A stretch of DNA of 64,000 bases from an uncultured beta proteobacterium. Lineage in GTDB: Bacteria; Pseudomonadota; Gammaproteobacteria; Burkholderiales; Burkholderiaceae. The stretch is from assembly GCA_903875135.1 (NCBI GenBank), contig CAIQUZ010000037.1:19606-83605 (forward strand), read 5' to 3'. This document shows positions 8,570 to 24,789 of this stretch, piece after piece (positions within the stretch are counted from its first letter, which is position 1; every line of letters begins with the position of its first letter). The position numbers were made by a program, and so were the translations under genes. The notes beneath the pieces were generated by a model. That model searched no databases. It was not told where the DNA came from and worked only from the letters and a program-made list of their open reading frames with translations.

Positions 8570-8647
8570 CGAGCATCCTTAAGGGTTAGAGTTAAATGAG
8601 AGTAATGACCCATACTAGAACGCAATAGAATGTTTCGAAACTCATAT

Positions 8648-8684
8648 AACACCTTTATGGTGCTAATTTCACCAAATTGGAGAA
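8648..8684. promoter_or_regulatory. Two tandem NtrC-like binding sites upstream of urtA
   Basis: aacacctttatggtgct (8648-8664) and ttcaccaaattggagaa (8668-8684) versus consensus TGCACCA-N3-TGGTGCA: 4 and 3 mismatches, centres 20 bp apart, upstream of a nitrogen-acquisition operon. Confidence 0.55.
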
Positions 8685-8796
8685 CTCGAAAGAGACTGGA
8701 GTGCCTTGAGTAGTTTTTAAATCCATTAAATGCCGACACAGAGGATAAAGCTGTAAAAAGTTTTTACTTACCTAAGGCTAACTTAATGCTTTGGCT

Positions 8797-9261
8797 CTAT
8801 TTAAGCCGATCATTAGCTAACTGTGTAGCCTTAACAATTCCGGAATATCCTGTGCAACGACAGAGATTTCCAGACAACTCATTACGAATTTGACTCTCTG
8901 AATTACATTTTTCTCGAATTATCATGTCTCTAACGGTGATGAGCATTCCGGGCGTACAAAAACCACATTGCAAGCCATGCGCTTCAGAAAAACATTCACG
9001 AATCACTTTCATCTTATGATCATCTTCAAAACCTTCAATCGTTTGAACCGACATACCAGATACGGAAGCAGCTAAAGTAATACAGGAGCGTATTGGTTCA
9101 TCATTGACCAAAACGGTACAAGAACCACAGACACCTAATTCACAAGCTAAATGAGTACCGGTAAGATGAAAAGTATTGCGAAGAAGATCAGCTAGCGTCA
9201 TTCGATCATCTATCTCTGTTTGAAAATATTGATGATTGACTTGAAGAGAAATTGAACTCAT
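8797..9261 (-). CDS. Molybdenum hydroxylase small subunit (2x[2Fe-2S], CoxS/XdhC-S like)
   Basis: CELGVCGSCTV...SC and QCGFCTPG...NLCRCTGY. Confidence 0.93.
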   Translation of the reverse strand: MSSISLQVNHQYFQTEIDDRMTLADLLRNTFHLTGTHLACELGVCGSCTVLVNDEPIRSCITLAASVSGMSVQTIEGFEDDHKMKVIRECFSEAHGLQCGFCTPGMLITVRDMIIREKCNSESQIRNELSGNLCRCTGYSGIVKATQLANDRLK

Positions 9262-10106
9262 TTTTTTAATGCCTCCATAACCGCTTTTTTTACAATAGAT
9301 CGATGCAAATTAAATTCATAAGATGATGACAGATGAAATGTGTTTTCAAGAAGATCACTGTCCAATAGATCATTCAAGTCTTTATCGAGATCAGCATTTT
9401 TGATGTTTGCTGAGGAGAGATACTTCGATAAGTGGGGTAATAAAACCGGCTTATCTCCTGCCGCACCTAAAATAGCATTAAAAATTCTCAACTCAGGATC
9501 AATAACAATTGCAGCTATGGAGTGTGCAAACTCTCCAACCTTATGACAAAACTTAACATAAGACCACTTAGCTTTTTCTGATAAAAAAGGTACGAAAACT
9601 CCTTTGACCAAATCAGTTTCTTTTAAACTCGTTTGCATGAGCCCGCACTGAAAATCTCCAATGGGCGTTTCTATCTCTTCAGCATGAGTCTTAATCATCA
9701 CACTTGCGCCAAGCGCTAGAAGCGCAGTGGGCCAATCAGCAGCAGGATCCGCATTGACGATACTACCACCTATGGTTCCTTTATTTCTTACCCCACGATA
9801 CGCAATACCTTGTGCGACGTGCTGAAGATATCCATGCGTCGGATCCTCAATCTTGCCATCCTCAATCATCGCATGCGTAACACCAGATCCTATAAAAAAA
9901 CGTTCTTTCGTCGCAAAACATTTTTTCAAATCTGGCAGTTGAGATATATCAATGACCTCTTCACTAAAAATTAAACGAAGACTCATCATCGGCATTAAGG
10001 ATTGACCCCCAGCCATATACTTAGCATTACCTTCATGAGTTTGATTGAGTGAGATAGCCTCATCGATGCCATTCACGATGTGATAATGTACCTTACCTAA
10101 TTTCAT
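9258..10106 (-). CDS. Molybdenum hydroxylase medium subunit (FAD, CoxM-like)
   Basis: AGGQSLMPMMSLR, VRNKGTIGGSIVNADPAADWP. Confidence 0.92.
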   Translation of the reverse strand: MKLGKVHYHIVNGIDEAISLNQTHEGNAKYMAGGQSLMPMMSLRLIFSEEVIDISQLPDLKKCFATKERFFIGSGVTHAMIEDGKIEDPTHGYLQHVAQGIAYRGVRNKGTIGGSIVNADPAADWPTALLALGASVMIKTHAEEIETPIGDFQCGLMQTSLKETDLVKGVFVPFLSEKAKWSYVKFCHKVGEFAHSIAAIVIDPELRIFNAILGAAGDKPVLLPHLSKYLSSANIKNADLDKDLNDLLDSDLLENTFHLSSSYEFNLHRSIVKKAVMEALKK

Positions 10107-12475
10107 GACATCACCTCAGACTTTTTAGTCAATTTTTCTCTAGCCTGCATAATTGCAGCGTAAACCCTCGGTGGAGTCATTGGCGTTTCATTCAATTCTG
10201 CACCTATCGATTTAAGTGCATCACGAATGGCATTGGCTATAGCCGCTGGTGGAGCAATAGCTCCACCTTCTCCCATTCCCTTCATGCCATATTCCGTATG
10301 CTCTGATGGTGTAACCATATGGCCTATTTTTATTGCCGGTATTTCAGTTGCTCCCGGAATTAAATAATCAGCTAAGGTAGTTGCTAAGGGTTGGCCAGTT
10401 GCATTATATGGAATCTCTTCATAGAGAGCAGTACCTATCCCTTGAGCAATACCACCAACAATTTGACCATCGACAATTAAAGGATTTACCACCGTGCCAC
10501 AATCTTCAACAATTGCGTAATCTAATATATCCACTTTTCCAGTATCAACATCAACAGCCACAACTGCGACTTGTGTTGCATAGGTAAATACTCCAGTATC
10601 AATCTTGGGTTCATAAGTCACAAGAACTTCAAGTAAAGGATCTAGACCTTTTGGCAAAGCCTCCTGCCTTAAATGAGCTATTCGAGCCACTTCTTTTAAT
10701 GCAATGGAACTTGTGGGACCATGAATCAAGTCATCTTCAAAACGTAAATCTACTAATGAACAACCGAGTAAATGCGCGGCAATGATGCCAATTTTACTTT
10801 TGAGAAGTCGGCAGGCTTTGGCAACTGCACCACCAGCCATGACCATACTTCTTGAGGCAAAGGTTCCCATCCCAAACGCACTAGTCTGAGTATCTCCATG
10901 TCGAATACTCACATGAATTGGATCAATTCCTAGCTCCTCACAGGCAACCTGAGCGAGAGAAGTTTCCATACCTTGACCATGAGAAACAATCCCTACTGAA
11001 ATAATCAATGAGCCATCTGTCATCATCCGAGCTGATGCCGTCTCATAGCCTGGAATCACAGGAACTCCGCGAGAAACCCATTCGCCACAACCATGCGCCG
11101 TCTGCTCTGTAAAAGAAGCAAACCCGACACCAATCAATCGACCATCAGATTCGCCTTTTTGCTGACGCAATCGAATCTGCTTGAATTCAATCAATTCTGC
11201 AGCGCGACGAACTGATTCTGCATAGTTACCACTATCAAATAATAGATTGGTGATGTTGCGATACGGCATCGCTTCTTCTGGTACCATATTTTCCATACGA
11301 ACTTCGTAAGGTTCACGGCCAACAGCATGAGCAATTTCATCAATAATTCTTTCGATTGTAAAACACGCTGCCGGTCTTGCAACACCGCGATAGGCTCCAA
11401 TTGGTGATTTATTAGTAGCTACTGTAAATGTTTTAACGCGATAGTTTGGAACGACATATGGTCCTGGAATATTCCTAGAAGCCATGCCAGTCTCCATAAA
11501 AGGTCCATTCGGCCAATGCGAATAGGCGCCAGCATCCACATGAATATCGACATCTAGCCCTAGAATTTTTCCTTGAGAATCGGCGTACGCGGTCACTTTA
11601 TGATGATGTTCCCGGCAATGAATCGCCGTCATTAAATGCTCTCGCTTATCATCAATCCACCGTACGGGCTTTTTCAGTTTTAATGCTAATGCAACAACCA
11701 TTAACTCCTCAGGATAGAGCACTCGTTTAGCACCAAAGGCACCACCCATATCCGGTGTAATTAAGTGTAATTGGTTTTCATCAATACCCAAAGCTTGAGC
11801 CATTCCCACTCGAGTTTGGTGTGGGGATTGAGATCCAATGTAAACAACTAACTCATTTAAACGGTGATCCCACATTGCCAAAATAGCACGTCCCTCCAAA
11901 GGGGCAGCTGACTGTCGATTCATTTTAAAACTTCTTTCAATCGTGACAGTTGCCATTTGCTTTGCTGTCTCTATATCTCCATACTGATTGTGTTTAGAAA
12001 CATAAATATTGTCACCCCATTCATCACGAATTAAGGGCGAATCAGTCCGAGTTGCCTCTAATAAATCGACAACCGCTGGTAATTCTTCTATATCTACTAA
12101 AACAGAATCAGCTATATCTTCAGCGATAGATCGATTTTCTCCAATTGCCATTGCAATAGGCTCTCCGGCGAATCTTACCCGGTCAGTAGCTAATGCGGGG
12201 TGCTCAGAGTATTTGAAACCTTCAACCTTTGGAACTGCAATAATTGGCTTTACATTGGGAAAGTCACTTGCCTGAAAAACTTGATCTTTAAACTCCTCAG
12301 GTATTTGTAAACTCTTAATAATGCCGTGAGCATAAGAACTTCTTACAAAAGCAACATCAATAATCCCTGGAATCTGAATATCAGAAACAAATTGACCCTT
12401 GCCATGAAGATGACGAGCATCTTCTTTCCTTAATATTCTTGCCCCAACACCTTTACCTGGTTTATCCAATTTCAC
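10103..12475 (-). CDS. Xanthine-dehydrogenase-family molybdopterin large subunit (CoxL-like, not form I CODH)
   Basis: RKEDARHLHGKGQFVSDI, DMGGAFGAK, AYRGVARP, GQGMETSLAQ, GMGTFASRS, GQIVGGIAQGIG, KGMGEGG; the form I CODH motif AYxCSFR is absent. Confidence 0.93.
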   Translation of the reverse strand: MKLDKPGKGVGARILRKEDARHLHGKGQFVSDIQIPGIIDVAFVRSSYAHGIIKSLQIPEEFKDQVFQASDFPNVKPIIAVPKVEGFKYSEHPALATDRVRFAGEPIAMAIGENRSIAEDIADSVLVDIEELPAVVDLLEATRTDSPLIRDEWGDNIYVSKHNQYGDIETAKQMATVTIERSFKMNRQSAAPLEGRAILAMWDHRLNELVVYIGSQSPHQTRVGMAQALGIDENQLHLITPDMGGAFGAKRVLYPEELMVVALALKLKKPVRWIDDKREHLMTAIHCREHHHKVTAYADSQGKILGLDVDIHVDAGAYSHWPNGPFMETGMASRNIPGPYVVPNYRVKTFTVATNKSPIGAYRGVARPAACFTIERIIDEIAHAVGREPYEVRMENMVPEEAMPYRNITNLLFDSGNYAESVRRAAELIEFKQIRLRQQKGESDGRLIGVGFASFTEQTAHGCGEWVSRGVPVIPGYETASARMMTDGSLIISVGIVSHGQGMETSLAQVACEELGIDPIHVSIRHGDTQTSAFGMGTFASRSMVMAGGAVAKACRLLKSKIGIIAAHLLGCSLVDLRFEDDLIHGPTSSIALKEVARIAHLRQEALPKGLDPLLEVLVTYEPKIDTGVFTYATQVAVVAVDVDTGKVDILDYAIVEDCGTVVNPLIVDGQIVGGIAQGIGTALYEEIPYNATGQPLATTLADYLIPGATEIPAIKIGHMVTPSEHTEYGMKGMGEGGAIAPPAAIANAIRDALKSIGAELNETPMTPPRVYAAIMQAREKLTKKSEVMS

Positions 12476-12562
12476 TATCCTTCAAAAGATTATTCAATGA
12501 CATCTGTTGCACACAGGAATTTTTCTTTACTTTATAACAATCGTAGATATTACATGGGCTCT

Positions 12563-13564
12563 TTACAAAGGCTTTAATCCCATTTCTTTTACTAATTTTC
12601 CATATTTTTCAATATCACTATGACGTAAAGCCTTAAATTCATCGGGTGTTGTCAAATAAACCTCTGCACCAAGAGGTTGAATATGTTGACGCATTTCAGG
12701 GGTATTCATCGCTTCTTTTAAAGCCAAATTCAGCCTGTATACAATTTCTTTGGGCAATTTGGCTGGTGCTTCAATACCCATCCAGAAATTCATAGTTGCT
12801 GAAGGAAATCCAGCTTCCTTTGCTGTTTGCACGCCTGGCAATGAGGGAGATCTCTTCTCAGACATCACGAGTAATGGTCGAACCAGTCCGCCACGAATAA
12901 ATCCAATGGCAGAAGGTAAGGAATCAAATACCATAGATACTTGTCCAGAAATAACATCGGGAAAAGCCTGGCCGGATGACTTATAGGGAACGTGGACCAT
13001 ATTTAGTCCCGTGGCATTCATTAATATTTGGCCAGATAAATGTCCGGTGCTTCCGGGACCTGCAGATGCAAAACTTAAGTTATTTCTTCCAGCTCCTTTA
13101 CCATAAGCTACCAAATCATCAAAAGTCTTAACAGATAAATTATTATTCACGACTAATACATTTGGTGTAACGATGATTGTCCCAATTGGCGTAAAGTCAT
13201 CTTCATTGTGATACGTTAAGTCCTTTAACAATACTGGCGCTACAGAAATCATAGGAGGACTTGTTAACAAGAGGGTGTAACCGTCGGCAGGTGCTTTAGC
13301 AACTGCCGCAGCACCTATAGTTCCTCCCGCACCACCTTTATTTTCAACAACAACAGCTTGTTTCAAAACATTTCCCAAACTTTGAGCAAGTACTCTGCCG
13401 ATCGTATCGGATACCCCACCAGTCGCATAAGGCACCACTAATTTAATGGGCTTTGATGGATATTCGCTTTGTGCAAGCACATTAAAACTCGAGAACAAAA
13501 AGGCACTAAAAATCATACAAAAAGCAATTGCAGGACACTTTATAAACCTCTGTAAATTCAACAT
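12563..13564 (-). CDS. Bug/TctC tripartite tricarboxylate transporter substrate-binding protein
   Basis: Signal peptide; YPSKPIKLVVPYATGGVSD, VENKGGAGGTIG, APADGYTLL, HVPYKS. Confidence 0.93.
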   Translation of the reverse strand: MLNLQRFIKCPAIAFCMIFSAFLFSSFNVLAQSEYPSKPIKLVVPYATGGVSDTIGRVLAQSLGNVLKQAVVVENKGGAGGTIGAAAVAKAPADGYTLLLTSPPMISVAPVLLKDLTYHNEDDFTPIGTIIVTPNVLVVNNNLSVKTFDDLVAYGKGAGRNNLSFASAGPGSTGHLSGQILMNATGLNMVHVPYKSSGQAFPDVISGQVSMVFDSLPSAIGFIRGGLVRPLLVMSEKRSPSLPGVQTAKEAGFPSATMNFWMGIEAPAKLPKEIVYRLNLALKEAMNTPEMRQHIQPLGAEVYLTTPDEFKALRHSDIEKYGKLVKEMGLKPL

Positions 13565-13595
13565 TTATTTCTCCAATTTTTTAATACATGATTAA

Positions 13596-13946
13596 CTAGA
13601 TAGCTGCCATCGCGGTTATTTCAATTAAACATTTAGGATCATTAAGCTCTACCTTGCCACAACACCTTGTTGGAGTTTCATTCGGTATGACCCATGCATC
13701 CCAAACACGATTCATTGCCGCAAAATCATCCATGGACTTTAACCAAATCTGTGCAGAAATTAAACGTGACTTTGTAGTTCCCGCCTGCTCAAGTAAAAGT
13801 TGAATCTTTTCCAAAACTTGGCGGGTTTGATCTTCAATAGTTGTAGTTCTATCATCAGGAACTTGACCAGAAATATAAACAATACCATTGTGAATTAATG
13901 CTCTACTACGCCTTGCATTTTGATCAATACGAATAAAATCACTCAT
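13596..13946 (-). CDS. Rid (YjgF/RidA superfamily, YoaB-like) imine/enamine deaminase
   Basis: HNGIVYISGQV, IEDQTRQVL, DFAAMNRVWDAW, PTRCC (active-site Arg), LIEITAMAA. Confidence 0.88.
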   Translation of the reverse strand: MSDFIRIDQNARRSRALIHNGIVYISGQVPDDRTTTIEDQTRQVLEKIQLLLEQAGTTKSRLISAQIWLKSMDDFAAMNRVWDAWVIPNETPTRCCGKVELNDPKCLIEITAMAAI

Positions 13947-14038
13947 CTTTTAAGTCCCTTAACGTTCAATTATTTAAAAAATTCTCTGTTCAATAACATT
14001 TCTAGTTCATCAATAAAGTAAAACGCATTAAGTAATGC

Positions 14039-15613
14039 TTAAATTCCATACGCTCCACCACCTGCGGTTTCCATTAAAACCACATCTCCAGGTTCGAGAG
14101 CTTTAGGTTCAGTAGGATCCACAGCAACGCCATTAATTAACAACCGCCCCTGTAATCCGCCACCTCCACCAGCAAGTCCCGACGGGACAGATTTGAGCTG
14201 AGTCATTAAAAATGAAGCCGTCACACTTTTCGCCTCTTTTAATAGTTCAAATTCAAAACTAATTCCATCACCACCATTATGTATTCCTCGACCGCCGCTA
14301 TCGCGACGTATTTCGCGCCGCAACACCCTAATTGGTGCAGAACTTTCCATAACCTCTACTGGCGTATTGCCTAAATTGCCAGGAAATGACATAGCAGAAA
14401 AACCAGCTCTGCGAGCAGTTGCTCCTTGCCCAGCATTTAAAAAATTAACGACAGCAAATCTCTTGCCATTCCATTCTCCAGACATAGTCATCGAAGAGTT
14501 TGGCGAACCACCTGCCCAAACCTTTTCTGGTAATACCTCAGCAAGTGCCTTAAAAACAGCGGCTGGGAGTAAATGTCCGATAGCGCTGCGACCGCCAGAT
14601 GCGGCAGGATATGTAGGATTAAATAAAGAGCCTAAAGGCGCAGAAGATGTAAATGGCATAAAGCAACCTTCGTTGTTGGGTATATCTGCACACAACAAAG
14701 CCTTTAATCCATAAACCGTATAGGCAAAGGTATAAATTGGGACAACGTTCACTGCCCGAGCAATCTGAGGACTTGATCCAGTGAAGTCGATATGAATACT
14801 GTCACCTTGAACATTTAATTGGCATTGAATAATGAGGGGCTCTTCAAAACCATCATGTTGAACCGTGGAACGATATATACCATCAGGTATTTTACGAATC
14901 GCATCTCGCATTGCTTTTTCAGAGCGCTTACGTAATTCTGCTCCAAGAATTTTTAAATCAATAACCTGTAGCAAATCTTGTAAACGTTGTGACATCATTT
15001 TACAAGCGGATACTTGTGCCCATATATCCCCCATCCCTTGATCTGGGACACGAATATTTTGAGTAATCATTTCTATCAGCACCTGATTAGGCTCACCCGC
15101 GTCAAGTAACTTCATCATTGGAATCTGAAGCCCCTCTTCATAAATCTCCCGAGAACTATTACTTCTTAGCTTTCCGCCAATATCCGGGAGGTGAGAAACA
15201 ACTGCGGCAAAAGCCACTAACTTATCGTGATAGAAAATAGGCCTAACCGTAGTCACATCGTGAATATGGCCGGAACCCTTCCATGGGTCATTCGTTATAT
15301 ACACGTCGCCAGAAACCATGGTTTCTGGCGGATACTTATTCAAAAAATGTCGGACAGTCGCCGGTAAACAACCAATGAATCCAGGCAAACTCATCGTCGA
15401 TTGGGCCAAAGATCGACCCTCTACATCCGTTAAAACAATCGCAAAATCGTTACCATCTCGAACCAAGGTAGAAAAACAGGTCCGAACGAAAGCTGCTGAG
15501 GCCTCATCAACGACGCTAATGAGTCTCTTCCACAATATTTCAAGTTCTATAGAACTTAAGTTGTTTTCTGGAAGGATTTCTTGATTAAAGTTGGTTTGAG
15601 GTAATCGGTTCAT
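14039..15613 (-). CDS. Hydantoinase B / 5-oxoprolinase family subunit
   Basis: TNDPWKGSGHIHD, SHLPDIGG, EIYEEGLQIP, NTPVEVME, ETAGGGAYG. Confidence 0.92.
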   Translation of the reverse strand: MNRLPQTNFNQEILPENNLSSIELEILWKRLISVVDEASAAFVRTCFSTLVRDGNDFAIVLTDVEGRSLAQSTMSLPGFIGCLPATVRHFLNKYPPETMVSGDVYITNDPWKGSGHIHDVTTVRPIFYHDKLVAFAAVVSHLPDIGGKLRSNSSREIYEEGLQIPMMKLLDAGEPNQVLIEMITQNIRVPDQGMGDIWAQVSACKMMSQRLQDLLQVIDLKILGAELRKRSEKAMRDAIRKIPDGIYRSTVQHDGFEEPLIIQCQLNVQGDSIHIDFTGSSPQIARAVNVVPIYTFAYTVYGLKALLCADIPNNEGCFMPFTSSAPLGSLFNPTYPAASGGRSAIGHLLPAAVFKALAEVLPEKVWAGGSPNSSMTMSGEWNGKRFAVVNFLNAGQGATARRAGFSAMSFPGNLGNTPVEVMESSAPIRVLRREIRRDSGGRGIHNGGDGISFEFELLKEAKSVTASFLMTQLKSVPSGLAGGGGGLQGRLLINGVAVDPTEPKALEPGDVVLMETAGGGAYGI

Positions 15614-17728
15614 TTATTCAAACTCCTTAATAACAATCGAGACTGTTAAGTCCGAAAGAATAGTGACCTCTGATGCAACGGGGACCACAATTGTCGATTC
15701 ACGTTCTTCTAAAATTAACGGACCATTAATGGTTTGCCCTGCTTTTAATGAATAACGATCATAGACTGATGCCAATCCATACGCTTTTTTAAGGGGGAGA
15801 TAAATACTTCTTGTTTTTAACTCTAGATCTGCAGCATGCGTACGATTGTCACCCCACTCAAAATGATGACCTTCAACTTTTTCACTTCCCGTTAATCTCC
15901 AGGTGATGATCTGTGGATTGGCATTTGGAACCAATCGACCATACAATTTTTGATATTGTTCTTCAAATAAATTGAGGATAAGGTTTCCGGTCTCAGGACT
16001 TAAAGCTTGCCAATCAATGGCAATGGATATATCAGCGCCTTGACCGTAATAGCGCATTTCAAGTCTAATTTGCCAATGAATATCTTTAGCATTGGCCATT
16101 TCTAACTCCTTCTCAGCATCAATTTTGAGAATAGTTAAAGATTTTTCTATGGTTTGCCAGTCACAATTGGCGAGTAATTGTGGATTAGACCATGCTCGGT
16201 CAGCGCGAGCTGGTGCAGCTAACATACCTAAACATGATCCAGCACCTGCGGCAATTGGAATCAATACCCTGGGGATCCGAAGATTTCTCGCTACCTCAAC
16301 AGCATGCACGGGACCAGCGCCTCCAGTAGCAACCATCGCAAAATCTCTGGGATCATAACCATTTTCTGCAATATGGATGCGGGCGGCACTGGCCATATTC
16401 TCATTCACCATGTTGTAAATACCCCAAGCAGCATCTGTTTGAGATACTTCTAACTGATCAGCTAAATGCGTCATTTCAACTTTAGCTTGATGAGTATTGA
16501 GTTTCATCTCACCACCTAAAAAATTATCTGCACTGAGATAACCTAAAATTAAATCAGCATCAGTCACTGTTATATTTTTTCCACCTTGGTCATAACATAC
16601 AGGTCCAGGAACTGACCCAGAAGATTCTGGACCTACATTCAGAAGTCCTAATCGATTGATATAAGCAATCGATCCACCCCCAGCACCAATTTCTATCAGT
16701 TCTATACTTGGAATAAGAATCGGCAAACCTGAACCACGTTTAAATCGCTGTACTCGTGCACATTCAAAAAAATGCGCTACAGGTGCTTGCCCATCCACTG
16801 CAACACAGGCTTTTGCGGTTGTTCCACCCATATCAAACGCTAATACATGTTGTACCCCATTTTGACGAGCCGTATTAAGAGCAGAAAGGACTCCAGCAGC
16901 TGGGCCAGATTCTAATAATAAAATAGGTGTCTGAGCTGCAGCTTTCGCTGAAGTAAAACCTCCACTAGAAACCATGACTCTTAAAGGAACATCTTTTTGT
17001 ATTTGCTGAATTCGATCTTCAAGCTCTTCAAGATAAGAAGCTACGATGGGTTTGACATAGGCACTAGCAACAACGGTTGAGGTCCGCTCATATTCTTTGA
17101 TTTCCGATGCCACTTCTGAGGATAAGGAAATAGCAATATTCGGAAGAGCTTTCTGTAGGAATTGTCCCATTCGTTGTTCATGACTATCGTTCATATACGA
17201 ATGCACAAAAGATACTGCGATAGATTCCACATGCATCTTTCTTAACTCTGCCACAACTCTTTCAATTTCTTCTTGGGTTAAAACCTCAATAACTTCTCCC
17301 TGAGAGTTCAATCGCTCTTTTACTTCAATATGACAATTTGAATCAACTAACGCTTGAGGTAACTCAATATCTAAATCGTAAATATCGTAACGCCATTCCC
17401 GTCCAATTTCCAGAATGTCGCCCATACCTGATGTGGTAACTAATGCTGTTTTGGTTCCTTTACGCTCAATTAATGTATTTGTAATTAATGTAGTTCCATG
17501 CACAATTTCGGATAACTGAGGCGGATCAGAATTTAATGAGTGACTTACTTGCTCCAATAAGTTAATGATGAGCTTTGAGACAGCTTCTCCAGGATCAGTA
17601 GGTGTTGTCGGAGTTTTTCCAACCCATATGAGACCATTTGAGGATAAAGTGGCAACTCCATCAGTAAATGTCCCGCCAATATCGACTGCTATACGTAATT
17701 GATGAAGAATACTAGAAGATTTGTTCAT
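15614..17728 (-). CDS. Hydantoinase A / 5-oxoprolinase family ATP-binding subunit
   Basis: AVDIGGTFTD, HGTTLITN, ESGPAAG, DMGGTTAK, IGAGGGS, GGAGPVHA. Confidence 0.93.
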   Translation of the reverse strand: MNKSSSILHQLRIAVDIGGTFTDGVATLSSNGLIWVGKTPTTPTDPGEAVSKLIINLLEQVSHSLNSDPPQLSEIVHGTTLITNTLIERKGTKTALVTTSGMGDILEIGREWRYDIYDLDIELPQALVDSNCHIEVKERLNSQGEVIEVLTQEEIERVVAELRKMHVESIAVSFVHSYMNDSHEQRMGQFLQKALPNIAISLSSEVASEIKEYERTSTVVASAYVKPIVASYLEELEDRIQQIQKDVPLRVMVSSGGFTSAKAAAQTPILLLESGPAAGVLSALNTARQNGVQHVLAFDMGGTTAKACVAVDGQAPVAHFFECARVQRFKRGSGLPILIPSIELIEIGAGGGSIAYINRLGLLNVGPESSGSVPGPVCYDQGGKNITVTDADLILGYLSADNFLGGEMKLNTHQAKVEMTHLADQLEVSQTDAAWGIYNMVNENMASAARIHIAENGYDPRDFAMVATGGAGPVHAVEVARNLRIPRVLIPIAAGAGSCLGMLAAPARADRAWSNPQLLANCDWQTIEKSLTILKIDAEKELEMANAKDIHWQIRLEMRYYGQGADISIAIDWQALSPETGNLILNLFEEQYQKLYGRLVPNANPQIITWRLTGSEKVEGHHFEWGDNRTHAADLELKTRSIYLPLKKAYGLASVYDRYSLKAGQTINGPLILEERESTIVVPVASEVTILSDLTVSIVIKEFE

Positions 17729-17764
17729 AAGATGAATGTTATTTTTTAATGTATGTACTAGATA

Positions 17765-19177
17765 TCAATATGCAATCGTAATTAAACGCTCTTCTGTCAT
17801 TTCACGAGTCGCATAGGCAGGCCCTTCTCGACCAAAACCACTATTTTTTACCCCACCAAATGGCATGACGTCAGCACGTGCACTAGATGCTTCATTAATA
17901 TGAATACCACCAAACCTTAATCTTCTAGCAGTCTGAAAAGCTGTGGAAAGGTTACTTGTAAATAGGCCTACAGCTAAACCAAACGGACTATCATTTGCGC
18001 GCATCACTGCTTCATCAATATGATCAAACTCTAAAATGCTAATCACCGGCGCAAATATCTCCTCACAATAAACACGCATATCATCTTTTACATTGATAAG
18101 AATTGTTGGCTCCATCACATTACCAACACAAGTCCCACCTGACAATAATTGGGCGCCTGATTCAATCGCCTCTTTAACAAAGGACATGGCGCGCATCGCA
18201 TGCGCATGACTGATTATTGGTCCAATGATCGTTGCCCGATCAGACGGATCTCCAGCTTTCGCAGCTTTAGCTGCAGCAATAAGTTTCGGTATCAATGTTG
18301 CTGAAATTCGACGATCAACTAATAATTTTTGTACTGACGTACAAACCTGCCCCGCCTTACGGAATCCAGCATTAATGATTTTAGGAATCGCCATATCGAT
18401 ATCAGCGTCATGACAAACAATCGTACTGGCGATACTTCCAAGCTCTAGTTGGAGACCTCTTAAACCCGCTGCTTTCTGAATCTCAAGCCCGACTCGTGTG
18501 CTTCCAGTGAAGGCATAATAAGCAATTCTTTGATCAAGTAACAACTGTCGACCAATCGTTTCTCCAGATCCATTGACTAAGGCCAATAATGAAGAGGGTA
18601 AACCTGCCTCGATGAGTATTTTAAATAGCTCTACGGAAGTTAATGGTGTAATTTCAGAGGGTTTTAAGATAACGGCATTTCCACCAGCTAACGCGGGACC
18701 TACTTTATGGGCAACGGTATTGAGTGGCGAATTAAAAGGAGTTATTGCACAAATAACACCCCGCGGCATTCTGATGGTGTATCCAATACGGTTTTTCATT
18801 CCAGATGCAACTTCCATTGGAATTAACTCCCCATTCAGGTGCTTTGCTGCCTCTGCAGATAATTCCAAGGTTTGTACACAGCGACGCACTTCATTCTCAG
18901 CGTCTGGCATAGTAAACCCTGCCTCATTTTTCATCAATTCAGACAAAATATGAATGCGTTCTTTTGTTAATCGTGATGCTTGCATGAGGATCTGATAACG
19001 ATCATAAGGACTTAACTGATTGGATTCAAACCCCTTTAACGCTCCATCAACTGCTTCTATGACCTGTTGAACAGATGCAACTGCCATCTGCCCATATTCT
19101 TTTTCATGATATTTATCTTTTAATACTTGTACTGACTCACCATCTACCCAGTGTCCATTGATGAGAAGTTTAGACAT
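17765..19177 (-). CDS. NAD(P)-dependent aldehyde dehydrogenase
   Basis: ITPFNSPL, KPSEITP, FTGST, LELGSIAS, AGQVCTS (catalytic Cys), EEIFAPV, PFGGVKNSGFGREG. Confidence 0.95.
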   Translation of the reverse strand: MSKLLINGHWVDGESVQVLKDKYHEKEYGQMAVASVQQVIEAVDGALKGFESNQLSPYDRYQILMQASRLTKERIHILSELMKNEAGFTMPDAENEVRRCVQTLELSAEAAKHLNGELIPMEVASGMKNRIGYTIRMPRGVICAITPFNSPLNTVAHKVGPALAGGNAVILKPSEITPLTSVELFKILIEAGLPSSLLALVNGSGETIGRQLLLDQRIAYYAFTGSTRVGLEIQKAAGLRGLQLELGSIASTIVCHDADIDMAIPKIINAGFRKAGQVCTSVQKLLVDRRISATLIPKLIAAAKAAKAGDPSDRATIIGPIISHAHAMRAMSFVKEAIESGAQLLSGGTCVGNVMEPTILINVKDDMRVYCEEIFAPVISILEFDHIDEAVMRANDSPFGLAVGLFTSNLSTAFQTARRLRFGGIHINEASSARADVMPFGGVKNSGFGREGPAYATREMTEERLITIAY

Positions 19178-19188
19178 ATATGTGCCTC

Positions 19189-19815
19189 TTATTGTTTTAA
19201 AGATAAGGCTTGCATGAAGCCTAGTCGAATTTTTACAGGATCACGATCGGTCGAAACAGTTGGGGTTTTATCGTCAATTCGTGTTGCAATAAAATGAGGG
19301 CCATCATTCGTCAAAGCTTCATCAATTAATTGTTCGAAGTGTGCCTCATCTCTTGCCCACCAACTTTGAGTGATTCCTGAACTGCGGGCAACACTCACTA
19401 AATCAACACAAGAGTCAGTCAAGGTAGGTTGCTTTCCAGTAATTTGATACATTCCATTATCAAAAACAATCATCGTTAGGTTTTTTAAAGGCGTTCTTGC
19501 GACAGTCCCAAGTGCTCCTAACTGCATTAAAAGAGAACCGTCCCCTTCTAAAGCAAAGACTCTTCGTTTAGGTTGAGCCAAGGCAACACCAAAGGCAATC
19601 GGAATCGTCAAACCCATGCTACCTAGCATGTAAAAATTTTCAGGACGTTGACCGTTCGCCCAAAGATCAAAATTATTATTACCAATACCACCTATCACTG
19701 CTTCTTTGGTATGCAATTTTGATACTAGCCTCTTCGTTAAATCAAATCGATTCATAACCTGTACGTTTTCACGTGTACTAGATGGTTGAGTTAAATTAGT
19801 CATAGTCAATTTCAA
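19189..19815 (-). CDS. Split ThDP decarboxylase beta subunit (sulfopyruvate decarboxylase ComE / phosphonopyruvate decarboxylase-like)
   Basis: NFYMLGSMG, EGDGSLLMQLG...FDNGMYQITGKQPT (ThDP-Mg motif). Confidence 0.85.
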   Translation of the reverse strand: MKLTMTNLTQPSSTRENVQVMNRFDLTKRLVSKLHTKEAVIGGIGNNNFDLWANGQRPENFYMLGSMGLTIPIAFGVALAQPKRRVFALEGDGSLLMQLGALGTVARTPLKNLTMIVFDNGMYQITGKQPTLTDSCVDLVSVARSSGITQSWWARDEAHFEQLIDEALTNDGPHFIATRIDDKTPTVSTDRDPVKIRLGFMQALSLKQ

Positions 19816-20348
19816 GCCGATCGTTTAGTCAATAGAGGCGACAAAATCATTGCCGCTGGTGCTTGTGTTGCAAATGCTTGCTTAATCATATTGTCAATAA
19901 TAAATTCAACATCATTAAGTCTTTCAATCGCATAATTTTCAATTCCTAACGTATTCAAAACAGGACGCATGGTTCTACAAACAATGGCTTGACCAACCTG
20001 AAACTCGCCTAAAGTTCCACGCTCTGAAATCATCATCAACACAGGAATCTGAAATGGCACCGCCAAAGAAGCAAGAACATTAGCTAAAGTAGCAAACCCA
20101 CTAGTTTGCATCAGGGTAATGCCTCGTAAACCAGCCATATAACTCCCAGCGATAATACCAATTGCTTCCTCTTCGCGCGCTGGGGCAATCACCGTAAAGT
20201 ATGGATCAGCATGTAATACTTTTATTAATGGGGCTAATACTTTATCTGGAACATACGTAATCAGAGATACGTCGTTACTCTTCAGAACTCGCAGTACGAT
20301 GTCATACCAGGTTTCTTGTAGAGTATTAGAGGATTTATCAGTAGTCAT
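19812..20348 (-). CDS. Split ThDP decarboxylase alpha subunit (ComD-like)
   Basis: YVPDKVL, REEEAIGIIAGSYMAG, LMQTSG, IPVLMMISERG..GE...Q. Confidence 0.85.
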   Translation of the reverse strand: MTTDKSSNTLQETWYDIVLRVLKSNDVSLITYVPDKVLAPLIKVLHADPYFTVIAPAREEEAIGIIAGSYMAGLRGITLMQTSGFATLANVLASLAVPFQIPVLMMISERGTLGEFQVGQAIVCRTMRPVLNTLGIENYAIERLNDVEFIIDNMIKQAFATQAPAAMILSPLLTKRSA

Positions 20349-20385
20349 GAGTTATTTAAATTATTTCATTTTTTTATAGTGTGGA

Positions 20386-20808
20386 TCAAGAGGACTTAGC
20401 ATTAACTTCAGGGACAGGCATTAAAAAGGTTCCTCGACCACTAGCAATTAGTTTGTCATCTAAATCATAAATATAAGCTTCACAAACGGAGAACTGTTTA
20501 CCCAACTTAATGGCTTTCCCTTTCACAATTAAATCTCCAGGTTTTGCCATACGGTGATAATCAATCCTTAAATCGATTGTAGGAACGGGCTTTCCTATCG
20601 TTTCGAATAACACAAAATCTGCAGCAAAATCAATTAAGGCAGCTAATATCCCACCCTGAGTCTGCATGAATTTCAGATTAGCTACCCATTCTTCACGCCA
20701 GGTAGCACGAACTTGGATCGTCTCTTTATCAATACTCAAGACTTTTAAACCTAACCAACTTAGGTAGGGACCTCGATCAATCACTTCTTGAACTTGCTCA
20801 ATACTCAT
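20386..20808 (-). CDS. PaaI-family hotdog-fold thioesterase
   Basis: QGGILAALIDFAAD, PTIDLRIDYHR, LIASGRGTF; Gln where PaaI usually has His in HGG. Confidence 0.85.
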   Translation of the reverse strand: MSIEQVQEVIDRGPYLSWLGLKVLSIDKETIQVRATWREEWVANLKFMQTQGGILAALIDFAADFVLFETIGKPVPTIDLRIDYHRMAKPGDLIVKGKAIKLGKQFSVCEAYIYDLDDKLIASGRGTFLMPVPEVNAKSS

Positions 20809-20817
20809 CTTTACCTT

Positions 20818-22368
20818 CTATGATTTTTTATTTGATGGTGATTCTGAAGAGTTTTCTTGACCTGCTAGATACATCTCAATCCCTTTTACCTCAAGAGTCT
20901 TGCGATCAATCTTACCAATAGTGTTTAGTGGAAGAGCGTCAACAAAAAATACTCTGCGAGGATATTGATACGGTGGCGCACTTTTCAAGGCATGCGCTTT
21001 AATATCTTCTTCTGTGAGAGAAGAACCTTTATTTAGAACAATAAAAGTAACAGGTAAGCGATATTTAATTTCATCAGGAACTGGCACAACGACCGCTTGA
21101 GCAATTTCAGGATGACGCTCAAGCATTAATTCAACCTCTAATGGATAAATATTGTGTCCACTAGAAACAAACATATCGTCAGAGCGCCCCACGAAAAAAT
21201 ACCAACCAGCATCATCCTTTCGAAGAATATCTCCAGTGTTATACCAACCATCTTGTAATTTTTTTTGAGTTTCCGCTGGATTGTTAACATAACCATTCAT
21301 CATGCCAGGACTTTTTACATATAAAACGCCCTGCATGTCATTCTCCCCTCCCACAAATTTAAATTCATTATCAGCAATTGGCCATCCGATGGAATGGCGA
21401 GGACGAATCAAATTGCTTTTGTGATTAGATCCAAATAAGGCGGAGCTTGCTTCAGTAATGCCATAAATTTTGACAATTTCCGCTTTTGGAAATTTGATTG
21501 CTACCTGATCGATTAGTACATCAGATGCTGGTGCCCCACCTAAAGTTGCAAGTCTTACAAAACTATAATCATTACCTTCCAATAACTCTTGTTGCTGCAT
21601 CATCATGGCAAACATCGTCGGCACACCTGAAACTACGGTTGAACGATATTGTGTAATGTACTCAACATATTTTTTTGCATCAAATTTACGCATTAAAATG
21701 ACCGTTGAACCACCAACGAGAACGCACTTGATTGAATTCATGGCATGCTTATGGTACAAAGGCGCAGCCACAATCATACGATCATCAGGACAAAAGTTGC
21801 GATCACGTGAAATAGTTTCTGCGACAAAAACATGAGCACGATGAGATAGGCTAACTCCTTTAGGGCGACCAGTTGATCCAGATGTGTATGCCTGAAAAGC
21901 TTCTTGGTTATATGTTGGAGTTAAAGCCGTAAATGCACCATAGTCTTTAAATGCTTCATATCCAGTTGGACCGCTATTATCGATTTCAATCAGTTTGATA
22001 TGAGCAGGACATTTATCCCTTGTTACTGATTCGCAAAATATTAGTTGCACATCAGAATTTTTAACCATCCATTCAATATTATCTTGTGTTTGTAGAATAT
22101 TTAAAAGAACAGGCACAATTCCTGCACGCATAGAGCCAAAGAAAATCTCTAAAAATTCTGCACGATTTCCTGACAAAATACCAATCCGAGCCCCCTCTTT
22201 GAGCCCTAATTTCAATAACCCTTTTGCTACTGCATCACAGGAAGCATGGTATTGCTGATATGTAATTTCCCGTTTATTTTCCGGATTGGTTAAATCAATA
22301 ATTACCGGATACGTTTTATCGCGAAACTCTGAAGATATACAGCCTAAATTTTGTATCAACATATTCAT
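20818..22368 (-). CDS. Acyl-CoA synthetase (class I adenylate-forming)
   Basis: YTSGSTGRPKGV, APLYH, YGITEAS, YNTGD, GRSDDM, LPLNTIGKIDR. Confidence 0.93.
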   Translation of the reverse strand: MNMLIQNLGCISSEFRDKTYPVIIDLTNPENKREITYQQYHASCDAVAKGLLKLGLKEGARIGILSGNRAEFLEIFFGSMRAGIVPVLLNILQTQDNIEWMVKNSDVQLIFCESVTRDKCPAHIKLIEIDNSGPTGYEAFKDYGAFTALTPTYNQEAFQAYTSGSTGRPKGVSLSHRAHVFVAETISRDRNFCPDDRMIVAAPLYHKHAMNSIKCVLVGGSTVILMRKFDAKKYVEYITQYRSTVVSGVPTMFAMMMQQQELLEGNDYSFVRLATLGGAPASDVLIDQVAIKFPKAEIVKIYGITEASSALFGSNHKSNLIRPRHSIGWPIADNEFKFVGGENDMQGVLYVKSPGMMNGYVNNPAETQKKLQDGWYNTGDILRKDDAGWYFFVGRSDDMFVSSGHNIYPLEVELMLERHPEIAQAVVVPVPDEIKYRLPVTFIVLNKGSSLTEEDIKAHALKSAPPYQYPRRVFFVDALPLNTIGKIDRKTLEVKGIEMYLAGQENSSESPSNKKS

Positions 22369-23384
22369 ATCTCAATAATCACTTTGCCAAAAACACGTCG
22401 CTCTTCTAATAGACGTAACCCCTCAGCTGCTTGATCTAGGGGAAATACTTGATCAATAACGGGATGTATTTGTTTATCTGCCACAAATTGAAGGCATGCT
22501 CGAATATCATCGGGCACATAAGCCCTAGAACCAATGATTTCCATCTCTCTGAACCATAAAAAACGAACATCAACGGTACACAGATGATCTACAGTCGATC
22601 CACACGTAAGAATTCGACCATTGACGGCCATGCTACGTTGTGTAGGTATCCAAGTATCACCGCCCGTAAAATTGATGGCAACATCGACACCTTTTTTACC
22701 AGTCGCAACCCATACCGCTTTAGAAAAATCAGGCTCATCAGCATAGTTGATAACATGATCAGCGCCAAGAGCTTTTAATTTTTGACTTTTTTCTTCACTA
22801 CTTGTACAAGCGTAAACTTCACACCCCGCCATCTTGGCAAACTGTAAGCAAGACACCCCAACACCGCCACTTGCACCGAGAATAAGAACTTTTTCTCCGG
22901 CCTTTAACCGCCCTCGAGTAAATAACATACGATGCGAAGTACCATAGGCAATCGGTAAAGCCGCCGCTTCAATATCATTGACGCCATCTGGAATTTCAAT
23001 TAATTGACGTTGATCGACACAAATAAATTCACAAAGGCCACCGTTTCCGTTCTCTCCTAGGACACCTCCCTCAGGAAAGCGTGGGAATAAGACGACTCTC
23101 TTTCCAAGCCAATCCTTAGAAACACCTTCACCAACCTCACGCACGATACCAACAACATCCCCACCCGGAATACGCGGCATCTTCGTTGGCATATCTGGCA
23201 TGCCATGAAGGACAAATACATCCATATAGTTCAGTCCGCAGGCTTTGACCTCAACAATGGCAAAGTTTGCTTTAACCTCTGGTTTAGGCCAATGATCGAA
23301 CTTCATCTGCTCTACACCACCATGTTGCTGAATCGCAACCACTCTCATCTGATCTATCATGCTAACCCTTAAATATTGATACAT
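22365..23384 (-). CDS. Medium-chain dehydrogenase/reductase, zinc-independent quinone/enoyl reductase type (start may be ATG 23348)
   Basis: ACGLNYMD and PGGDVVG in place of the Zn-ligand C-H/GHE motifs; GASGGVG NADPH motif; C-terminal GKVII. Confidence 0.85.
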   Translation of the reverse strand: MYQYLRVSMIDQMRVVAIQQHGGVEQMKFDHWPKPEVKANFAIVEVKACGLNYMDVFVLHGMPDMPTKMPRIPGGDVVGIVREVGEGVSKDWLGKRVVLFPRFPEGGVLGENGNGGLCEFICVDQRQLIEIPDGVNDIEAAALPIAYGTSHRMLFTRGRLKAGEKVLILGASGGVGVSCLQFAKMAGCEVYACTSSEEKSQKLKALGADHVINYADEPDFSKAVWVATGKKGVDVAINFTGGDTWIPTQRSMAVNGRILTCGSTVDHLCTVDVRFLWFREMEIIGSRAYVPDDIRACLQFVADKQIHPVIDQVFPLDQAAEGLRLLEERRVFGKVIIEI

Positions 23385-23534
23385 AGAACATTCACTATGA
23401 TCTAGTCTAATATTTTGGTTTAATCAGTGCAAATCAATTAATTACGCTTATTGTTCGTTTTTTTTAATAAATAGAATCTTACTGAAGGCATTGAGCAACA
23501 GATTCAACTTATAAATATCAAATTCGAGAAATGA

Positions 23535-24472: not shown

Positions 24473-24784
24473 TTAACCACCACCTCTTCTTGTATACAAA
24501 TCAAATCGATCCATCACTACATTGATTTTAGATATACCGATCTTATTTTTGGAAAACAAAAGCTGTACTTTTAAAGTTGGTATTGACAATAAAGCGATCT
24601 GACGCGGCTTTTGAGTTGTTGCACAAACTTTGATCATTGCTTCTGTAATTTCTTGAAACTTCTTTTGATCAATCTCGATATCAGTTAGTACGTAGAGATC
24701 ACCTAAGGCATTAGGCAACCATCTCAACAACTCTTGTTTAGTACAACCCATGTTACGGGTAATGGCAATATCGTCAGATAACAC
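24473..24784 (-). CDS. Small conserved-looking hypothetical protein closing the aor operon (AorE-like position); likely GTG start at 24784, ORF track starts at 24814
   Basis: Intact ORF starting 5 nt after the moaD-like stop; RNMGCTKQELLRWLPNALG N-terminus; ends YTRRGGG. Confidence 0.7.
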   Translation of the reverse strand: MLSDDIAITRNMGCTKQELLRWLPNALGDLYVLTDIEIDQKKFQEITEAMIKVCATTQKPRQIALLSIPTLKVQLLFSKNKIGISKINVVMDRFDLYTRRGGG

Positions 24785-24789
24785 GCGAT

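Follow-up and report, generated by a model that had tools for sequence, protein, structure and literature searches.

The 64,000-nucleotide stretch of contig CAIQUZ010000037.1 (assembly GCA_903875135.1) that we analyzed, referred to here at its full length as the window, comes from a freshwater Polynucleobacter-like bacterium and contains a unit of 14 genes, made up of a LysR-type regulator gene (23535-24443) and 13 further genes in the same direction on the minus strand (8797-23384). We tentatively read this unit as a LysR-controlled operon by which a carboxylated N-heteroaromatic acid would be taken up and converted, without oxygenases, to tricarballylate, the best candidate substrate being pyridine-2,4-dicarboxylate or its 6-hydroxy form; this reading is plausible, although we stop short of calling it probable. 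The observations that bear on it are the gene content of the unit, its conservation and modularity across genomes, and its linkage to tcuAB, the genes for tricarballylate dehydrogenase. The genes are listed below in the order of transcription, with the Pfam domains or motifs on which each assignment is based (ThDP, thiamine diphosphate; CoA, coenzyme A; Mo, molybdenum).

23535-24443, minus strand: LysR-type regulator (HTH_1 and LysR_substrate)
22365-23384, minus strand: Zn-independent MDR, putative NAD(P)H enoyl-thioester reductase (ADH_N/ADH_zinc_N)
20818-22368, minus strand: AMP-forming acyl-CoA ligase (AMP-binding and AMP-binding_C)
20386-20808, minus strand: hotdog-fold acyl-CoA thioesterase of the PaaI/YdiI type (4HBT)
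19812-20348, minus strand: ThDP-dependent 2-oxo-acid decarboxylase, alpha subunit with the PYR domain, ThA (TPP_enzyme_N)
19189-19815, minus strand: ThDP-dependent 2-oxo-acid decarboxylase, beta subunit with the PP domain, ThB (TPP_enzyme_C; GDGS...DNG ThDP motif)
17765-19177, minus strand: NAD(P)+ aldehyde dehydrogenase, ALDH (Aldedh, 455 bits)
15614-17728, minus strand: putative ATP-dependent lactam hydrolase, subunit A, HyuA (Hydant_A_N, Hydantoinase_A, Hydant_A_C)
14039-15613, minus strand: putative ATP-dependent lactam hydrolase, subunit B, HyuB (Hydantoinase_B, 461 bits)
13596-13946, minus strand: Rid-family imine/enamine deaminase (Ribonuc_L-PSP)
12563-13564, minus strand: Bug/TctC periplasmic binding protein of the tripartite tricarboxylate transporter type (TctC)
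10103-12475, minus strand: Mo hydroxylase large subunit, form-II CoxL/Qor-like, MoL (Ald_Xan_dh_C, MoCoBD_1, MoCoBD_2)
9258-10106, minus strand: Mo hydroxylase FAD subunit, MoM (FAD_binding_5)
8797-9261, minus strand: Mo hydroxylase [2Fe-2S] subunit, MoS (Fer2 and Fer2_2), the last gene of the conserved block

The list of open reading frames (ORFs) and the Pfam matches agree with the preliminary description of this DNA, which had reported a block of 13 co-directional genes with these domains. From MDR to MoS the intergenic gaps are -4, 9, 37, -4, 11, 36, 0, 92, 31, 87, -4, and -4 nt, so that the reported maximum of about 90 nt is borne out (the largest gap is 92 nt), as are the several ATGA overlaps, of which there are three (MDR/ligase, MoL/MoM, and MoM/MoS). 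The ThA/ThB overlap is TTGA, with an uncertain start; in relatives ThB has 204 aa, and its true start is probably a few codons downstream of that of the longest ORF. The true start of MDR, too, is probably downstream, by 8-12 codons; its relatives have 331 aa. HyuA and HyuB abut at the junction TAAATG, and no convincing intergenic terminator was detected within the block by a promoter and terminator scan that was otherwise uninformative. The extent formerly given to the operon, 8797-23384, covers 13 genes that all belong to it but leaves out the LysR gene, which is co-directional and lies 150 nt upstream of the block. When the window was compared by blastn with its closest relatives (L001, L003, and L034), only the region from 8,765/8,801 to 24,461/24,481 aligned; the 14-gene block has about 84% DNA identity to these relatives, whose flanks differ. 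Since the relatives keep the block with such sharp edges, its association is far above chance.

To survey the distribution of the unit, one genome per species was scanned with HyuA, which gave 44 loci at 64-92% identity. The loci were compared by means of a tblastn matrix, a gene caller filtered on third-position GC content, and database gene calls; gene calls in the high-GC loci are approximate, and many of the relatives are metagenome-assembled genomes (MAGs). Lack of conservation as a unit had been named beforehand as a result that would speak against the preliminary description; what we found was orthologous clusters in about 45 species of the Burkholderiales, Rhizobiales, Rhodobacterales, and Sphingomonadales, that is, in both beta- and alphaproteobacteria, with Paraburkholderia xenovorans LB400 and Pigmentiphaga sp. 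H8 among the carriers. Four modules can be told apart: a core, the MDR/ligase/thioesterase cassette, a transporter, and the Mo hydroxylase. Nearly all loci, from all four orders, have the core ThA-ThB-ALDH-HyuA-HyuB-Rid, and HyuB is the best-conserved protein of the cluster (73-96% identity across loci). At least 26 loci have the cassette, which runs either in the direction of the core or divergently from it, and its thioesterase gene is invariably accompanied by those of the ligase and MDR. In strain LB400 all modules lie within about 30 kb, and the cassette belongs to the same island, some 20 kb upstream. More than 25 loci have, with the cluster, a LysR ortholog of 53-96% identity, and in a sample of 151 genomes of the genus, the four that have a HyuB ortholog are precisely those with a ligase ortholog.

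The Mo hydroxylase and the transporter vary in kind. A Mo hydroxylase is nearly always encoded nearby, and at least three types that are not orthologous to one another can be distinguished: L-M-S orthologs with at least 72% identity in many Burkholderiales and in one Bradyrhizobium MAG; an alphaproteobacterial type, which either is arranged M-S-L, with an identity of about 34% for L and 46-50% for S, or has an L subunit at 51-53%; and, in Paraburkholderia, an IorA/IorB/cytochrome c form. Bug orthologs occupy the same position in the Burkholderiales loci, and the alphaproteobacterial loci carry other transporters instead, namely an ATP-binding cassette (ABC) system with an NMT1-like binding protein, a major facilitator superfamily (MFS) protein, or TctCAB. 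Because non-orthologous proteins replace one another while the class of function is kept, hydroxylase and uptake probably serve the pathway of the core.

The second line of evidence is the position of tcuAB. In LB400, tcuB, tcuA, and a second LysR gene lie between the Mo hydroxylase and the core, and in total 15 loci, from both classes, have tcuAB beside the cluster, either in the fetched flanks or immediately beyond them (L010, L015, L018, L019, L021, L023, L027, L028, L029, L033, L037, L038, L039, L043, and L076). In L076 they are inside the operon, with the thioesterase gene on one side and that of ThA on the other. The ligase and thioesterase genes of Lacisediminimonas are at a second locus, immediately followed by tcuA, and two Rhizobiales MAGs that have no TcuA ortholog carry a TcuA paralog (37-41%) behind MDR-ligase-thioesterase. 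TcuA orthologs with at least 57% identity are encoded in 34 of 41 cluster-bearing genomes and also in the source genome. TcuA and TcuB of LB400 and of the source genome score far above the NCBIfam equivalog cut-offs (721 versus 369 and 610 versus 524, respectively, on contig C123 of the source genome, outside the window). The evidence for a link with tricarballylate is thus this physical adjacency in other genomes, and since the cassette, which would activate, reduce, and release its substrate, directly adjoins tcuAB in several lineages, it points to free tricarballylate as the product.

Two further loci with tcuAB were observed. A Polynucleobacter genome without the HyuAB core (L118, G182:C20, 3652-11614) has genes for a Bug protein, MDR, thioesterase, ligase, LysR, TcuA, and TcuB in a row, with paralogs of the window proteins at 44% (MDR), 56% (thioesterase), and 41% identity (ligase); this row is a candidate for the CoA-dependent conversion of trans-aconitate, or another unsaturated tricarboxylate, through tricarballylate to cis-aconitate. 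On contig C123 of the source genome (5866-13113, L081), tcuAB are preceded by genes for a FAD_binding_3 monooxygenase-like protein, a DHDPS-family protein, a Bug protein, an HbpS-like protein, and an NMT1-like binding protein; upstream is a LysR gene, and the whole forms a second catabolic unit around tricarballylate dehydrogenase.

The family assignments of the individual products are compatible with work on an N-heterocyclic acid. HyuA and HyuB are encoded by adjacent genes with full-length A and B domains, and all four Pfam domains score well over their gathering cut-offs; the pair belongs to the two-subunit hydantoinase/oxoprolinase family, for which ATP-dependent lactam hydrolysis is predicted. 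The nearest solved structures of HyuA are an N-methylhydantoinase and 6yra, deposited as a 5-oxoprolinase. An identification as caprolactamase CapA/CapB was rejected, as HyuA and HyuB reach 481.2 and 167.5 bits against equivalog cut-offs of 1000 each. The best solved relative of MoL is quinoline 2-oxidoreductase (1t3q_B, E 6e-144), and its catalytic residue, Glu735, is in the motif GMGEGG. The active-site loop of form I CoxL, which we take to be VAYRCSFR with a Cu-binding Cys, has its counterpart here in GAYRGVARP, without the Cys of CO dehydrogenase; with this loop and a CO_dehy_Mo_lg score of 475 against a cut-off of 991, form I CO dehydrogenase was discarded. With MoCo, FAD, and 2x[2Fe-2S] domains in its L/M/S subunits and the catalytic Glu in place, MoL/M/S is a Qor-like hydroxylase of the xanthine oxidase family, predicted to act on an N-heteroaromatic compound. 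Among solved structures, PSPTO_0102 and PA5083 come nearest to the Rid protein, whose segment ...TPTRCCG... includes an Arg that lines up with that of the P-x-R motif in both, so that the carboxylate-binding Arg is retained; the protein is not RidA proper (TIGR00004 score of 60.8, cut-off of 106).

ThB meets the NCBIfam model PRK06163, an unnamed equivalog, with 332.7 bits against 240 over positions 5-199 of 202; this type has thousands of environmental homologs, none of them functionally named. The sulfopyruvate decarboxylase ComDE was considered for the ThA/ThB pair (ThAB) and rejected, since the alpha subunit scores 116.9 with TIGR03845 (cut-off of 147.95) and the beta subunit 150.4 with TIGR03846 (cut-off of 221.5). 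ALDH reaches no NCBIfam equivalog cut-off, and no solved structure matches it at E <1e-110. Regarding the cassette, the nearest solved structures of the ligase are 4-coumarate, malonyl, and benzoate CoA ligases, and the thioesterase passes the NCBIfam domain model TIGR00369 (71.1, cut-off of 36.6). The GHE zinc motif is absent from the MDR sequence, and the top NCBIfam models of this protein, all below their cut-offs, are the PIG3 quinone oxidoreductase, crotonyl-CoA carboxylase/reductase, and acryloyl-CoA reductase. The Bug protein is nearest in structure to BugD, the putative exported protein 2dvz, and terephthalate-binding proteins.

From these assignments the following route may be proposed. 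The Bug protein would deliver the acid, and the Qor-like Mo hydroxylase would oxygenate the carbon adjoining the ring nitrogen, giving a 6-oxo lactam. HyuAB would open the lactam C-N bond at the cost of ATP to yield a 2-amino-2-enoate, the tautomeric 2-imino acid of which would be hydrolyzed by Rid to a 2-oxo tricarboxylate and ammonia. The split ThDP enzyme would release C1 as CO2, and ALDH would oxidize the aldehyde to a C6 tricarboxylate. Ligase, MDR, and thioesterase would together carry out one CoA-dependent reduction of a C=C bond and then set the acid free, at one of two points in the route, according to two orders, X and Y. In order X, the 4-carboxyl group would be thioesterified, the ring C4=C5 bond reduced, and the acid released before ring opening; HyuAB would then open 6-oxo-1,4,5,6-tetrahydropyridine-2,4-dicarboxylate, Rid would produce 4-carboxy-2-oxoadipate, and ThAB with ALDH would convert it to tricarballylate. 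In order Y, HyuAB would open the aromatic pyridone, Rid would give 4-oxalomesaconate, and ThAB with ALDH trans-aconitate, whose trans geometry is deduced from the ring and which the cassette would reduce to tricarballylate. In both orders, TcuAB, encoded on another contig in this genome, would oxidize tricarballylate to cis-aconitate for the tricarboxylic acid (TCA) cycle.

Both orders fit, and we do not rank them against each other. Order X is favored by the short-form clusters L024 and L062, which consist of MDR-ligase-thioesterase-HyuAB-Bug-MoLM and have no ThAB or ALDH, and by known lactamase chemistry; the CoA-dependent ring reduction reported for Mycobacterium sp. INA1 would be one precedent for its logic. 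Another exists in the nicotinate/1,4,5,6-tetrahydro-6-oxonicotinate (THON) pathway (PMC3511419, PMC9304392). Order Y is favored by the repeated adjacency of the cassette and tcuA, together with the existence of a paralogous locus of the L118 type without the core. A more far-reaching version of order Y would have a HyuAB-family enzyme open an aromatic 2-pyridone hydrolytically with ATP, as the nitrogen counterpart of the LigI lactonase step, in an oxygen-independent conversion of pyridine-2,4-dicarboxylate through 4-oxalomesaconate to trans-aconitate; the ligase/enoyl-thioester reductase/thioesterase cassette, of a kind not described before, and TcuAB would then turn trans- into cis-aconitate by reduction and re-oxidation, and the cassette would also serve free trans-aconitate in bacteria without ring-opening genes. 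As a whole, we regard this version as rather unlikely.

The choice of substrate follows from the enzymes. The chain of HyuAB, Rid, ThDP decarboxylase, and ALDH needs a lactam nitrogen on a carboxyl-bearing sp2 carbon, and a 6-oxo-picolinate core would therefore be required. By chemical reasoning, only a carboxyl group at C4 turns this skeleton into tricarballylate or aconitate, which would place the second carboxyl there. Hydroxylation is probably a necessary step, since the Mo hydroxylase is kept in at least three non-orthologous forms. The resulting 6-oxo form of pyridine-2,4-dicarboxylate would be the nitrogen analog of 2-pyrone-4,6-dicarboxylate, the LigI substrate in protocatechuate 4,5-cleavage. 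Going by general chemistry, semialdehyde and pyrone intermediates of that pathway can cyclize with ammonia to pyridine-2,4-dicarboxylate or the pyridone. The source genome has a complete protocatechuate 4,5-cleavage cluster (contig C91, 1149-9192, L108) with genes for PobA, an aldo-keto reductase, a LigC-like protein, LigB, LigA, a LigI-like hydrolase, and LigK, behind which two proteins of 342 and 323 aa without an NCBIfam match are encoded. In the genus sample, LigA was present in 11 of 151 genomes, including all four cluster bearers and 7 of the 147 others.

Several results weigh against this assignment. The identity of the substrate depends on chemical logic and gene linkage, and the chemistry and the order of steps are likewise deduced. 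The link with protocatechuate is not general, given that, counted over all cluster-bearing genomes, only 8 of 42 have LigA and that the four bearers in the genus are close kin; this context is at most a lineage-specific clue. A TcuA ortholog is missing from seven cluster-bearing genomes, mostly MAGs and one Aquamicrobium isolate. In the genus sample TcuA occurs in 48 of 151 genomes regardless of the cluster and is so common that its co-occurrence there is uninformative; its presence in the source genome, with tcuAB outside the window, is weak evidence by itself. Short-form clusters without ThAB and ALDH exist (L024, L062, and L025). We know of no precedent for the ATP-dependent opening of an aromatic 2-pyridone that order Y calls for. 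Finally, no bacterial growth on pyridine-2,4-dicarboxylate, or biodegradation of it, was found in the literature, in a search limited by the commas in chemical names.

Other substrates were weighed on the same evidence. A picolinate route read in gene order comes close to the scheme of the preliminary description, which had named no substrate; in this route the Mo enzyme would form 6-hydroxypicolinate, HyuAB 2-aminomuconate, Rid 2-oxohexenedioate, the ThDP enzyme glutaconate semialdehyde, ALDH glutaconate, the ligase glutaconyl-CoA, and MDR glutaryl-CoA. It would use every one of the 13 gene classes, starts from a common natural product, and meets the demand of HyuAB, Rid, and the ThDP enzyme for a 6-oxo-picolinate core; Rid-type 2-aminomuconate deaminases are known. 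Moreover, 6-hydroxylation by a Mo picolinate dehydrogenase is described as the established first step of picolinate breakdown (bioRxiv 10.1101/530550). However, this route leaves the tcuAB linkage in 15 loci, directly behind ligase and thioesterase in several lineages, unexplained; the ever-present thioesterase would destroy the useful glutaryl-CoA, and the neighborhoods inspected contained no glutaryl-CoA dehydrogenase or glutarate genes. We consider it improbable. What can be retained of the earlier scheme is the N-heterocyclic acid, in view of the Qor-nearest Mo enzyme, the Arg of Rid, and the conserved unit. The acyl-CoA is probably not the end point, as the thioesterase-containing cassette beside tcuAB points to free tricarballylate, and for this reason the linear succession of steps taken from the order of the genes is doubtful. 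A pyridine monocarboxylate such as isonicotinate would agree better with tcuAB: hydroxylation, CoA activation, NADPH-dependent ring reduction, release, ATP-dependent lactam opening, action of Rid on an aldimine, and oxidation by ALDH would lead to tricarballylate and TcuAB, in a pathway akin to that of Mycobacterium sp. INA1. The Mo enzyme, the cassette, HyuAB, Rid, ALDH, and the tcuAB linkage would all be accounted for, and the short forms without ThAB are in line with it; yet it gives no role to ThAB, a dedicated family present in nearly all loci, and Rid proteins that conserve the Arg normally take 2-imino acids. This makes isonicotinate quite an unlikely substrate.

The same enzymatic logic might also be applied to another ring, for instance of the pyrrole-2-carboxylate type, a 2,5- or 2,3-pyridinedicarboxylate, a carboxylated 2-piperidone, or a pyroglutamate analog, with tcuAB reflecting a shared tricarboxylate theme only. 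Assignments at the family level leave ring size and substituents unfixed, and the transporter types differ between lineages. Nevertheless, by chemical reasoning none of these skeletons gives tricarballylate or aconitate, and the repeated adjacency of tcuAB would have to be a coincidence, so that this explanation seems unlikely. The last alternative is that no single pathway exists and independent modules travel together: one for a lactam or oxoproline analog (HyuAB, Rid, ThAB, and ALDH), one converting trans-aconitate to tricarballylate (ligase, MDR, and thioesterase, TcuAB being encoded elsewhere), and a third made up of a Mo dehydrogenase that would act on some unrelated heterocycle or aldehyde. 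In agreement with this, the modules are separable and rearranged between genomes, a paralogous Bug-MDR-thioesterase-ligase cassette adjoins tcuRAB in the Polynucleobacter genome that has no HyuAB core, and one Mo large subunit nearby is less surprising in a source genome with about 17 of them. On the other hand, about 45 species from two classes have the modules together inside 10-30 kb, with one conserved LysR and sharp common edges; the Mo hydroxylase is swapped for non-orthologous types rather than lost, and ligase and HyuB orthologs occur in the identical four genomes of the genus sample. To us such a mosaic appears about as improbable as picolinate, and the breakdown of pyridine-2,4-dicarboxylate or its 6-hydroxy form to tricarballylate is the reading that we retain.

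No characterized pathway was found to match the cluster, which is consistent with what had been anticipated for it: the caprolactamase cut-offs are missed by far, an HmfE-type hydratase is lacking, and the nicotinate genes differ in kind. The cluster appears to work like semi-reductive, hydrolytic N-heterocycle pathways and shares none of their specific genes. The nicotinate pathway of Eubacterium barkeri and of Azorhizobium caulinodans/Bradyrhizobiaceae, which leads from nicotinate through 6-hydroxynicotinate and 1,4,5,6-tetrahydro-6-oxonicotinate to 2-formylglutarate, has the same logic, namely Mo-dependent hydroxylation beside the nitrogen, partial reduction of the ring, and its opening by hydrolysis of the C-N bond, which frees ammonia, all without an oxygenase (PMC3511419, PMC9304392). 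Its own enzymes are a ferredoxin-type 6-hydroxynicotinate reductase and a bifunctional enamidase of the amidohydrolase type, whereas the cluster has ligase/MDR/thioesterase, ATP-dependent HyuAB, Rid, a ThDP decarboxylase, and the tcuAB link. Membership in that pathway was rejected because domains of 6-hydroxynicotinate reductase and enamidase are absent from the cluster (the Azorhizobium genes are of the E. barkeri type; PMC3511419) and, by chemical reasoning, 2-formylglutarate is not a ThDP substrate.

The isonicotinate pathway of Mycobacterium sp. INA1 would share Mo-dependent hydroxylation with the route proposed here; that pathway and its Mo hydroxylases are cited in PMC4548258. The likeness concerns the biochemistry of an actinobacterium, not sequences: the INA1 pathway has two hydroxylations, imide/amide hydrolysis, and no decarboxylation of a 2-oxo acid, and the cluster has no amidase but has ThAB, Rid, and HyuAB. 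Kretzer, Frunzke, and Andreesen (1993) reportedly described for INA1 that CoA activation takes place, that the thioester of the hydroxylated ring is reduced with NADPH, and that the product is propane-1,2,3-tricarboxylate. No gene assignment for this pathway, and nothing at the gene level on the breakdown of isonicotinate or citrazinate, was found in the literature searched. Compared with protocatechuate 4,5-cleavage, the deaminated ring-opened product would share the 4-oxalomesaconate skeleton; in contrast to the LigI route, opening would need ATP, through HyuAB, and Rid, and the 2-oxo acid, which is hydrated and cleaved in the LigJ/LigK route, would be decarboxylated and oxidized.

HyuAB belongs to the same two-subunit, ATP-dependent lactam-hydrolyzing family as CapAB, the valerolactam-hydrolyzing OplAB of Pseudomonas putida, 5-oxoprolinase, and N-methylhydantoinase; the context of caprolactamase differs, as the cluster has no aminotransferase. 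The furoate genes hmfABCDE (furoyl-CoA synthetase, Mo furoyl-CoA dehydrogenase, and HmfE) resemble the cluster in joining a CoA ligase with a three-subunit Mo hydroxylase for a heterocyclic carboxylate. This assignment was rejected, as no domain of the ECH family, to which an HmfE-type hydrolase would belong, is present in the 13 products or LysR; the cluster has HyuAB, Rid, ThAB, and ALDH in addition, and its MoL is nearest to quinoline oxidoreductase, an enzyme whose substrate is a free heterocycle. The picolinate pic cluster of Alcaligenes faecalis, whose genes presumably include those for 6-hydroxypicolinate monooxygenase, 3,6-dihydroxypicolinate decarboxylase, 2,5-dihydroxypyridine dioxygenase, and the maleamate-branch enzymes, was also rejected: it shares only the Mo dehydrogenase, and no monooxygenase, amidohydrolase_2, cupin dioxygenase, or amidase domain was found in 8797-24443. 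As for tcuRABC of Salmonella enterica, TcuA and TcuB equivalogs are encoded in the source genome and beside the cluster in 15 related loci. Here tricarballylate would be made in the cell from a heterocycle and not only imported, and TcuC is absent, with Bug, tripartite tricarboxylate transporter, or ABC systems in its place. In the literature searched, no paper paired hydantoinase/oxoprolinase with sulfopyruvate decarboxylase, and neither this combination of genes nor a gene assignment for the route was described; the papers listed for pyridine acids contained no link between hydantoinase/oxoprolinase and bacterial pyridine-acid catabolism, hydantoinase being named in none of them and oxoprolinase only in a nicotine transcriptome of Aspergillus oryzae.

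Knowledge of the genes for pyridine-carboxylate breakdown has so far come mostly from oxygenase routes (nic and pic) and the Eubacterium-type nicotinate cluster. If the proposed route is correct, genes would be assigned to a CoA- and ATP-dependent, oxygenase-free logic, the PRK06163 family of ThDP decarboxylases and an orphan clade of HyuAB would receive their first functions, and the tricarballylate dehydrogenase genes scattered beside heterocycle genes would be explained. It may also have a bearing on what becomes, in lakes and soils, of the N-containing by-products that lignin and humic matter give rise to. The prediction is directly testable, as the cluster is present in the cultivable and genetically tractable P. 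xenovorans LB400 and Pigmentiphaga sp. H8.

Some observations concern related genes in other genomes. Loci L040-L072, from Limnohabitans, Alcaligenaceae, Variovorax, and Ramlibacter, contain a second HyuAB clade with about 40% identity to that of the window; it regularly occurs with a Bug protein and often with an ALDH (about 32%), never with ThAB, Rid, or the ligase cassette, and probably represents a different lactam pathway common in freshwater Burkholderiales. Alphaproteobacterial clusters (L078, 4482-7045; L018, L023, and L035) have two additional genes beside TctCAB, one that is 3-hydroxyacid-dehydrogenase-like and one for a ThDP enzyme of 580 aa; the best model of the latter is PRK08327, below its cut-off, and its Xsc score is 68.7 against 676. 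A role in sulfonate metabolism had been considered on account of the ComDE-like enzyme and of TauE and NitT/TauT-type ABC genes in some alphaproteobacterial loci; it was dropped because ThAB is below the ComDE cut-offs and the 580-aa enzyme is not Xsc, and no neighborhood protein reaches the cut-off of a sulfonate enzyme. At L015:5904-7274, L019:5903-7252, L013:14032-15435, L037:16190-17716, and L039:16251-17723, a secreted protein is encoded that is conserved, has about 430 aa, and bears the serine-hydrolase-like motif GFSTGG; it has no Pfam or NCBIfam match. Its gene is inside the operon in Ancylobacter and behind a chemoreceptor gene in Paraburkholderia, and is not in the window; the protein may free the heterocyclic acid from a conjugate.

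With regard to the surroundings of the unit, the urtABC genes, whose products score over the NCBIfam cut-offs for UrtA, UrtB, and UrtC, lie 227 nt downstream of the block and outside the conserved unit. The flanks of the block in L003 correspond to 33,196-36,105 and 1-3,018 of the window; as other window sequence thus stands at both of its edges there, the urt and AOR operons are accidental neighbors, unlinked to the cluster. Compared with L003, the window has additional DNA on both sides of the cluster, at 3019-8765 (the urt urea-transporter operon) and at 24473-33195 (starting with the tungsten AOR operon); the region resembles a patchwork assembled from inserted catabolic islands. The roughly 17 genes for large subunits of the xanthine-oxidase family with a Mo cofactor in the source genome, which has 2.70 Mb, comprise about 10 that are CoxL/Qor-like and about 7 that are IorB-like (for example, at 10103-12475 and 34592-36982 of the window and on contigs C34, C56, C79, C89, C109, and C113). 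This load is unusually high for a small genome and suggests a heterocycle- or aldehyde-hydroxylating lifestyle.

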